A DNA stretch of 55,286 bases. It comes from a virus. The notes below the pieces were generated by a model that did not search any database, was not told where the DNA came from, and worked only from the letters and a program-made list of their open reading frames with translations. Position 1 is the stretch's first letter. Each line of letters begins with the position of its first letter. A program made the position numbers and the translations under genes. Below are positions 12,386-12,458 of the stretch, in pieces. The DNA is taken from the IMG/VR virus record IMGVR_UViG_3300028805_000144, positions 1 through 55,286 of that record, one strand, 5' to 3'.

Positions 12386-12458
12386 GGTCTCATAGTCAAG
12401 CGGCCTAAGACGTCTGACTCTAAATCAGAAGACCAGGGTTCGAATCCCTGTGGGACTA
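12386..12458 (+). tRNA. amber suppressor tRNA (anticodon CUA, loop cuCUAaa)
   Basis: acceptor GGTCTCA/TGGGACT (with G:U pairs); anticodon stem TCTGA/TCAGA; T-arm CAGGG-TTCGAAT-CCCTG; anticodon at 12420-12422. Confidence 0.8.

Follow-up and report, generated by a model that had tools for sequence, protein, structure and literature searches.

A putative TAG-to-glutamate code in a gut or rumen phage carrying a tRNA-Glu-like amber suppressor

The recoding of TAG in the late genes of phages that encode their own suppressor tRNA is already well documented. The code-15 gut phages, among them crAss-like, Lak, Garnet and Topaz phages (Borges et al. 2022, Peters et al. 2022), use TAG in their structural and lysis genes but not in early genes, keep TAA and TGA as stops, encode a tRNA(CUA) along with large tRNA arrays in which some tRNAs bear introns, and infect hosts presumed to follow the standard code; their coding density rises once TAG is treated as sense. 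In the literature searched, phage stop-codon recoding was described only as TAG to Gln or TGA to Trp, which was explained by glutaminyl-tRNA synthetase (GlnRS) and tryptophanyl-tRNA synthetase (TrpRS) accepting suppressor anticodons. Here, we analysed a viral DNA stretch of 55,286 nucleotides (IMG/VR record IMGVR_UViG_3300028805_000144, positions 1 to 55,286; hereafter the window), which stems from gut or rumen metagenomes and belongs to a phage with a genome of about 135 kb, probably infecting a Gram-positive member of the Bacillota. The window encodes an amber suppressor tRNA at 12386-12458 and uses TAG as a sense codon genome-wide. The features listed above for the code-15 gut phages are also those of the window phage, but its TAG sites are equivalent to glutamate in evolution and its suppressor has a tRNA-Glu body. 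Judging from comparison with related sequences, we consider that TAG was reassigned from stop to glutamate via this tRNA-Glu-like amber suppressor, with a probability of roughly 0.85. The glutamate assignment would be the new part.

A TAG-to-Glu code in phages was not found in the searchable literature, although an unindexed paper may exist. Kienbeck et al. listed 180 amber suppressors with the predicted isotypes Gln, Trp, Ile and Tyr and none with Glu, and Crisci et al. found some TAGs of Lak phages aligned with E and concluded Q. The closest described phage is Phass-1 of the proposed Phassvirus (OQ749652; PMC10607447), which is a member of the same broad phage group and shows 34.5% identity in a 635-aa structural protein. 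Like the window phage, it uses TAG in its virion genes, encodes tRNA(CUA) and lacks an aminoacyl-tRNA synthetase (aaRS) gene; its genome is of similar size, about 136 kb, and its predicted host belongs to the Clostridia. Its authors reported Gln-aligned TAGs in TerL and annotated the genome with table 15 (PMC10607447), and NCBI places it in a 'Caudoviricetes code 15 clade'. Phass-1 differs in that one of its CUA tRNAs copies the tRNA-Gln body of this group (AGCGGGTTCG..., G73), so that its suppressor looks Gln-type, different from that of the window, whose lineage has a Glu-type suppressor and TAGs aligned with Glu.

Two systems outside natural phages also pair TAG with glutamate. In the peritrich ciliate nuclear code (NCBI table 30) both TAA and TAG mean Glu. 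This code is eukaryotic and reassigns TAA as well, whereas TAA is the main stop of the window, ending 44 of 49 open reading frames (ORFs); a peritrich-type code with both codons as sense was rejected on this ground. In the laboratory, an E. coli tRNA-Glu body given a CUA anticodon, a construct attributed to Kleina, Normanly, Abelson and Miller in 1990, reportedly acts as an amber suppressor that mostly inserts Glu. Such suppressors were engineered and are inefficient, while that of the window is natural, conserved in related phages and serves hundreds of codons.

The use of TAG as a sense codon is directly visible in the gene structure. With greedily chosen, non-overlapping ORFs, the coding density is 61.0% under the standard code and 90.5% with TAG as sense, compared to 66.8% with TGA and 82.7% with TAA, the latter without any gain in long ORFs. 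The increase with TAG exceeds the 5-10% by which recoded phages are recognised. Only with TAG as sense does the longest ORF grow from 838 to 2904 aa; the stop-to-stop ORFs then measure 2904, 1459, 771, 745, 640 and 597 codons, and fragments are fused into proteins of 2902, 1451, 759, 635 and 596 aa. Recoding of TGA or TAA was rejected, as neither yields long ORFs. The 49 credible ORFs end with TAA (44) or TGA (5) and never with TAG, and they contain 165 in-frame TAGs. The earlier note, which was based on the window alone, had described most late structural genes as single frames broken only by TAG, all true stops as TAA or TGA, and TAG as present in accessory genes too. All of this was borne out, apart from a small overcount in 21418-23697, where at least 15 TAGs had been claimed and 13 were counted. 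Tandem TAG-TAG, placed by that note near 4681, in the minus-strand gene 32470-32775 and probably in the tape-measure gene, was located at 4678-4683 and, on the minus strand, at 32730 and 45521, the last position within the tape-measure gene. The genes with in-frame TAGs are the following:

4630-5427, plus strand: accessory gene, 265 aa, 7 TAGs
10081-10500, plus strand: ORF with 1 in-frame TAG
13390-13929, plus strand: ORF for an HNH homing endonuclease, 2 TAGs, located in the predicted 773-nt intron of a tRNA-Leu(UAA)
14044-15135: RlaP nucleotidyltransferase gene with one TAG at codon 19, probably upstream of the real start
16077-16394, plus strand: ORF with 1 in-frame TAG
18807-19571, plus strand: GIY-YIG/NUMOD3 homing endonuclease ORF inserted into a Ro-like gene, 9 TAGs (the true start may come after the first 3)
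20861-21388, plus strand: 175-aa gene, 5 TAGs
21418-23697, plus strand: structural gene, 759 aa, 13 TAGs
23700-25607, plus strand: structural baseplate-like gene (DUF5048), 635 aa, 14 TAGs, the main test family
32470-32787, minus strand: small gene, 105 aa, tandem TAG-TAG at codons 20-21
32778-33266, minus strand: RuvC-like Holliday-junction resolvase (PHROG 827 and 159), 162 aa, 7 TAGs
33644-35434, minus strand: putative tail fibre or receptor-binding protein, 596 aa, 8 TAGs, where TAG makes up half of the Glu-family codons
35446-39801, minus strand: large tail protein, 1451 aa, 29 in-frame TAGs
39912-48620, minus strand: tape-measure protein (core region matching PF10145), 2902 aa, 56 in-frame TAGs including one TAG-TAG, stop TGA

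A default explanation would be that TAG is still a stop, that the long frames are pseudogenes, assembly artefacts or cases of occasional read-through, and that the CUA tRNA is incidental. Only the default code speaks for it, and the label 'tRNA-Pyl' given to this tRNA by ARAGORN reflects the anticodon only. However, the ORFs, up to 8.7 kb long, contain 165 in-frame TAGs and not a single in-frame TAA or TGA, the same frames recur with 139 shared TAG positions in independent assemblies from several metagenomes, and full-length homologues are present in cultured Enterococcus phages that use the standard code. The continuity of the ORFs and their conservation refute TAG as a true stop, to which we assign a next to negligible probability.

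Concerning the amino acid inserted, the earlier note had pointed to a likeness to code 15 and had considered the residue not determinable. The latter holds for the window alone, but the comparison with relatives resolves it, and alignments, codon exchanges, composition and tRNA identity features all point to Glu instead of Gln. For such a comparison the public protein collection is of no direct use, since it already has Q wherever this clade has TAG, which apparently goes back to code-15 gene callers. Loci were therefore compared at the DNA level. For the 635-aa family, the DNA of 13 IMG/VR relatives was retrieved and translated with X in place of TAG; in the TAG columns of the alignment, E accounts for 50% of the residues and is 8-fold enriched, compared to 0.8-fold for Q. 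A likelihood test was based on 614 residues opposite window TAGs in 17 genes, with substitution frequencies measured in the same alignments. The log-likelihoods were -1616 for Glu, -1843 for Gln and -1934 for Asp, with Glu best in every identity bin and best separately for the genes at 20861, 23700, 32778, 35446 and 39912. Among the codons opposite TAG, GAA occurred 321 times, GAG 57 times and CAA 22 times, whereas CAG did not occur.

The composition of the orthologues and the exchanges between close relatives agree with this result. Among orthologues that carry between 1 and 19 TAGs, the sum of Glu and TAG stays constant at 45-58, while Gln remains at 20-28 irrespective of the number of TAGs. 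GAG decreases as the number of TAGs rises, and TAG, which constitutes 24% of the Glu-family codons in structural genes, appears to have replaced mainly GAG. Close orthologues, defined as pairs at least 75% identical, were taken from five further assemblies; they have 139 TAGs in common and show 43 TAG exchanges, 27 of them with GAA or GAG, 3 with GAT and 2 with CAA or CAG. If TAG meant Gln, synonymous swaps between TAG and CAA or CAG would be expected to dominate. At 4678-4683, where the window has TAG-TAG, a 95%-identical orthologue from the related contig L040 reads GAA-TAG.

Single proteins allow a similar reading. Two TAGs of the RuvC-like resolvase lie within conserved acidic motifs (IIM-x-EVRP and NDD-x-ADA), where its orthologues read E. 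In a profile test with libraries largely independent of this clade, all TAGs were set to each of ten residues. For the RuvC-like protein, phrog_159 scored E with 54.6, Q with 44.8 and D with 31.6 bits, and for the tape-measure core PF10145 gave 103.5 bits for D, 102.5 for E, 100.6 for Q and 91.9 for L. E and Q scored equally with phrog_827, as did E, Q, D and K with the GH25 domain of the endolysin. The Enterococcus phage EF1 was too distant to discriminate; among 16 TAG sites compared, it has 6 E and 1 Q.

These data bear most directly on code 15, according to which an amber suppressor that accepts Gln decodes TAG as glutamine. Gln is the only meaning of TAG that we found reported for phages whose code differs from that of the host (10.1101/2021.08.26.457843; PMC9523058; PMC10879173). 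Furthermore, Phass-1 was annotated with TAG as Gln (PMC10607447) and carries a Gln-like suppressor, tRNAs with a CUA anticodon are readily glutaminylated in E. coli (10.1101/2021.08.26.457843), and a few TAG sites of the window do align with Q. Against this stand a Gln likelihood 226 log units below that of Glu, the 27 Glu codons against 2 Gln codons exchanged among close relatives, a Gln count per orthologue that is independent of the TAG load while Glu plus TAG is conserved, and a Q score 10 bits below that of E with phrog_159. Together with the features of the tRNA described in the following, they make a code 15 in the window very improbable.

The suppressor and the elements that belong to it are:

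12161-12189, plus strand: predicted sigma-70-type promoter (TTGATT, 17 nt, TATAAT with extended -10 TG; regular-expression and consensus scans), directly upstream of the suppressor tRNA
12212-12385, plus strand: leader of about 170 nt between promoter and suppressor tRNA, conserved in the related contigs L040 and L172
12386-12458, plus strand: amber suppressor tRNA with anticodon CUA and a tRNA-Glu-type body (ARAGORN; Rfam RF00005, 66.3 bits)
8083-8156, plus strand: ordinary tRNA-Glu (UUC) of the phage, used for comparison
17604-17674, plus strand: tRNA-Gln (UUG) of the phage, with an A1 start and G73 and a body unlike that of the suppressor

ARAGORN finds 19 tRNAs in the window, of which one, at 12385-12459, has the anticodon CTA. 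The Rfam tRNA model places the suppressor at 12386-12458, exactly where the earlier note had seen a well-formed tRNA with the loop cuCUAaa, and its 66.3 bits are the top tRNA score in the window. The tRNA is 73 nt long and forms a canonical cloverleaf with the anticodon loop CUCUAAA, U8, A14, G18G19, the T-loop GTTCGAATC, the D-arm GUCAAGCGGCCUAAGAC, a 4-nt variable loop AGAC, G1.U72 and A73; CCA is not encoded. A pyrrolysine tRNA, as suggested by the ARAGORN label, was ruled out by this architecture. A tRNA-Pyl has a 3-nt variable loop and a small D-loop, lacks the G18G19 and T-psi-C consensus and is accompanied by pylS and pylBCD. No Pyl-related Pfam match was obtained among the window proteins scanned.

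To place the tRNA body, 185,579 bacterial and archaeal genomes were scanned with the pattern of its D-arm and T-loop, which yielded at least 120 loci. Among the matches listed (at least 125 tRNAs), 115 are tRNA-Glu, 7 tRNA-Gln and 3 tRNA-His, nearly all from Bacillota, and the nearest of those listed, from Pelotomaculum, Oscillospiraceae and other Clostridia metagenome-assembled genomes, share the exact D-arm GGTCAAGCGGCCTAAGAC. The Bacillota-type tRNA-Glu D-arm GUCAAGCGG(N2-3)AAGAC, with a D-loop longer than that of tRNA-Gln, is matched by the suppressor; this feature is not independent because it was used to retrieve the set, whereas the variable loop, N73 and the 1-72 pair are. At the same loci, the variable loop has 4 nt in all 116 tRNA-Glu and 5 nt in 56 of 60 tRNA-Gln, and position 73 is A in 115 of 116 tRNA-Glu and G in 59 of 60 tRNA-Gln. 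The suppressor has 4 nt and A. The pair U1-A72 is present in 60 of 60 tRNA-Gln, while C72 occurs in 116 of 116 tRNA-Glu and G1 in 100 of 116, the remaining 16 having been shifted by one base by ARAGORN. Thus, the suppressor lacks all three Gln marks (U1-A72, G73 and the 5-nt variable loop), each found in 56-60 of the 60 Bacillota tRNA-Gln, which also speaks against code 15. Searches for its nearest neighbour were less specific: compared with 223 phage tRNAs, it is 67-74% identical to many isotypes, an exact-match scan of IMG/VR for the anticodon arm retrieved mostly unrelated CUA tRNAs, and a stricter pattern of D-arm and anticodon loop gave 0 matches.

Related phages carry variants of this gene. 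The suppressor is identical in L041 and has one substitution in L172, a 134,758-bp scaffold that is a 95% relative. In L037, an 81% relative, a 212-nt intron splits the anticodon loop of the same body (L037 5226-5512). L040 has a homologous 209-nt intron (L040 11793-12077) in a CUA tRNA whose body is different, but also Glu-like. As the exons of L040 form this different Glu-like body at the syntenic site, the suppressor has been swapped at a fixed locus. An HNH gene follows just downstream of the intron-bearing suppressor of L040; the window, L041 and L172 represent the intron-less allele. A more distant relative, L013 (54% identity in the 635-aa protein), possesses a different tRNA(CUA) and a tRNA with an ochre-type UUA anticodon (1029-1104 and 2395-2469), as well as a second UUA tRNA at 3276-3829 found by ARAGORN in intron mode.

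Several observations weigh against glutamate as the sole meaning of TAG. All of the evidence is comparative. The suppressor has G1.U72 and not the G1-C72 of normal tRNA-Glu; together with the anticodon CUA, this marks it as a derivative of tRNA-Glu and not as an ordinary one. Q is over-represented opposite the TAGs of relatives, with 9% compared to a background of 3.5%. Two TAGs of the 1451-aa tail gene align with Q at the DNA level in the distant contigs L045 and L047, and these two positions are mostly Q in about 100 database homologues. Some Gln insertion, or replacements of Q by E, at TAG sites is therefore conceivable. K is about equal to E for 21418-23697, when compared with distant relatives, and for the GIY-YIG ORF, and the TAG at codon 81 of 15627-15938 is TGG in two close relatives. 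The latter is a 103-aa ORF whose orthologues in L040 and L172 are 96-97% identical, and its TAG is either a real stop, by which the protein is truncated, or a change from Trp to Glu; among the close relatives, no other case departs from the pattern in this way. The charging enzyme raises a further difficulty. The glutamyl-tRNA synthetase (GluRS) of E. coli uses anticodon bases including C36, and CUA tRNAs are prone to charging by GlnRS, so that charging with Glu is not guaranteed and depends on the host enzyme. Finally, no aaRS, release factor or inhibitor of release factor 1 (RF1) was found in the window and about 7 kb beyond its 3' end on the same-strain contig L176; the sequence retrieved with the 5' end did not reach beyond the window.

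An intermediate explanation is ambiguous decoding, in which the suppressor receives Glu in some cases and Gln in others, by GlnRS mischarging or partial transamidation, and the TAG sites are tolerant positions occupied by a mixture of both. The 2.5-fold enrichment of Q opposite the TAGs of relatives fits such a mixture, as do the many TAGs at positions that are variable and surface-like, with similar scores for E, Q, D and K (GH25, phrog_827). Engineered E. coli tRNA-Glu amber suppressors are also said to insert mainly Glu with some Gln. However, TAGs are found at strictly conserved acidic motif positions of the RuvC-like nuclease too, the exchange spectrum of the close relatives is overwhelmingly Glu, and the acceptor end of the tRNA is devoid of Gln determinants. 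We regard ambiguous decoding as improbable, if slightly less so than code 15.

For an unambiguous TAG-to-Glu code, we propose the following course. Host RNA polymerase would transcribe the tRNAs and the phage sigma factor first, the suppressor from an early host-type sigma-70 promoter, and the suppressor would then accumulate. Host GluRS would charge it with Glu, which the amidotransferase GatCAB should not convert to Gln, since the suppressor lacks U1-A72 and has the enlarged D-loop of tRNA-Glu. It would insert Glu at the 165 in-frame TAGs. The early genes that avoid TAG could be translated before the suppressor accumulates, while structural and lysis genes would need it for completion. We infer the charging enzyme, the escape from GatCAB, the competition with RF1 and the role in timing. 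The GluRS of Bacillota is commonly non-discriminating and accepts both the UUC and the UUG anticodon as part of the indirect Gln-tRNA pathway, and thus should be relaxed at position 36. Structural work on GatCAB of S. aureus reportedly indicated that U1-A72 is required and that the larger D-loop of tRNA-Glu is rejected.

The promoter upstream of the suppressor belongs to a class of nine near-identical sigma-70-type elements, TTGATTTTTnnAAAAAAnTnTGATATAATATATAT (TTGATT, 17 nt, TGnTATAAT), all on the plus strand between 1847 and 17314, with -35 elements at about 1847, 2807, 4079, 5424, 7443, 10515, 12161, 15147 and 17286. Their function as promoters is predicted from sequence. The class is restricted to the TAG-poor tRNA/early region, and one copy precedes the sigma-factor gene; since the suppressor tRNA lies behind a promoter of this class, it is probably made early. 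In the structural module, another promoter-like motif, TTTGACAAA...TATACT/TAGAAT, takes its place and occurs near 25611 (plus strand) and near 33.3 kb and 39.8 kb (both minus strand). The leader of the tRNA is closed by a 10-bp stem (AGAUGAUAGC / GCUAUCAUCU) with one compensatory change in L040, has a fold z-score of only -1.56 and gave no match in an Rfam search. It is retained in L040 although the tRNA body differs there, whereas L037 has a short hairpin leader instead. The leader might affect the maturation or timing of the suppressor. An Rfam search, the only one made for this purpose (E up to 5), detected no theta/HDV-like ribozyme or other family around the tRNA, and no release factor 2 (RF2) gene was seen next to it, a further difference from the code-15 gut phages.

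The distribution of TAG is consistent with a link between recoding and the timing of expression, as the earlier note had suggested. The structural module at 20.8-48.8 kb, a virion module that also encodes a GDSL-domain fibre and a NAGPA-like glycosidase, contains 16.1 TAGs per 1000 codons compared to 3.6 in the early regions, i.e. a 4.4 times higher density (Fisher p = 4e-14). The contig L176, which runs past the 3' end of the window, carries a lysis cassette (L176 3756-5925) with a 133-aa ORF containing 6 TAGs, a 117-aa ORF containing 1 TAG and a GH25+CHAP+SH3_3 endolysin containing 4 TAGs, while its RNase H and GyrB genes are TAG-free. The architecture of the endolysin suggests a Gram-positive host. 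TAG in this lysis cassette agrees with the published link between recoding and lysis genes. A cREC_REC domain protein is likewise TAG-free, as are these genes of the window:

10585-11484, plus strand: phage sigma-70-family factor, with a promoter of the same class as that of the suppressor tRNA
19577-20680: piece of the Ro-like gene
49363-55044, plus strand: block with a gene of the MVP-shoulder/SPFH-like type and genes for a pyrimidine-dimer glycosylase, RNA ligase, AAA_33 kinase and metallophosphoesterase
49363-51834, plus strand: MVP-shoulder-domain gene of this block
52394-53638, plus strand: RNA ligase of this block
53982-55044, plus strand: kinase and phosphoesterase genes of this block

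The concentration of TAG in late and lysis genes and the TAG-free sigma and RNA-repair genes fit the proposed link with expression timing. However, the TAG-poor region still contains genes with TAG, namely 4630-5427 and both homing endonucleases, so that the split between early and late is statistical and not absolute.

Beyond this phage, TAG as Glu may be an unrecognised code of a widespread clade of gut and rumen Bacillota phages with genomes of about 135 kb, using a GluRS-charged, tRNA-Glu-derived suppressor that evades the amidotransferase, with the Phass-1 lineage differing; we hold this wider claim to be somewhat better than an even bet. If it is true, code-15 gene callers and the 'code 15 clade' of NCBI mistranslate thousands of proteins with Q for E. 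The family of the 635-aa protein alone has 3873 database matches, and many deposited sequences therefore probably carry Q where the phage makes E. In late proteins, about a quarter of the Glu positions would have the wrong residue, which changes charge, can touch catalytic residues, and affects structure prediction, homology searches and the matching of metaproteomic peptides. The same codon would have come to mean different amino acids in related lineages of a single phage group, a choice probably set by the route of the host to Gln-tRNA, via GlnRS or via GluRS/GatCAB. A TAG-to-Glu code would further show that other synthetases can be recruited, linking the choice of the amino acid to host aminoacylation pathways, and would yield a natural amber suppressor that inserts Glu efficiently, which is of interest to genetic-code engineering.

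Some minor features of the window and its relatives were also recorded. A search for related loci with the 1451-aa tail protein retrieved one distant locus only, and a phmmer search of PDB with the RuvC-like protein had no true match. Inside the TAG-rich structural module, 25774-26283, 26593-27429 and 27444-27899 are TAG-free and match only unannotated PHROG families. One of these three genes prefers CAG over CAA (17 vs 5), unlike its neighbours. They may encode the most highly expressed virion proteins, which would avoid the suppressed codon.

The TAG-free block at 49-53 kb had one weak match in a blastn search against INPHARED, to an unannotated 462-kb uncultured phage. Its 823-aa protein (49363-51834) combines the shoulder domain of the major vault protein (MVP; PF11978, 68 bits) with an SPFH/Band-7 signal. 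A separate TAG-free 367-aa SPFH protein is encoded at 488-1591; like the 823-aa protein, it is an uncommon cargo for a phage. The Ro-like gene (DUF2828+DUF7788) is a single 508-aa ORF in L040 and L172, whereas the window contains an N-terminal (18491-18931) and a C-terminal piece (19577-20680); the GIY-YIG ORF between them looks like a mobile insertion, possibly an intron. The tRNA-Leu(UAA) with the 773-nt intron that holds the HNH ORF spans 13228-14084 (ARAGORN intron mode). Three further loci, 7289-7420, 17404-17543 and 17683-17804, are full-length tRNAs according to Rfam, each with an insertion of 57-67 nt in the anticodon loop, and look intron-bearing.

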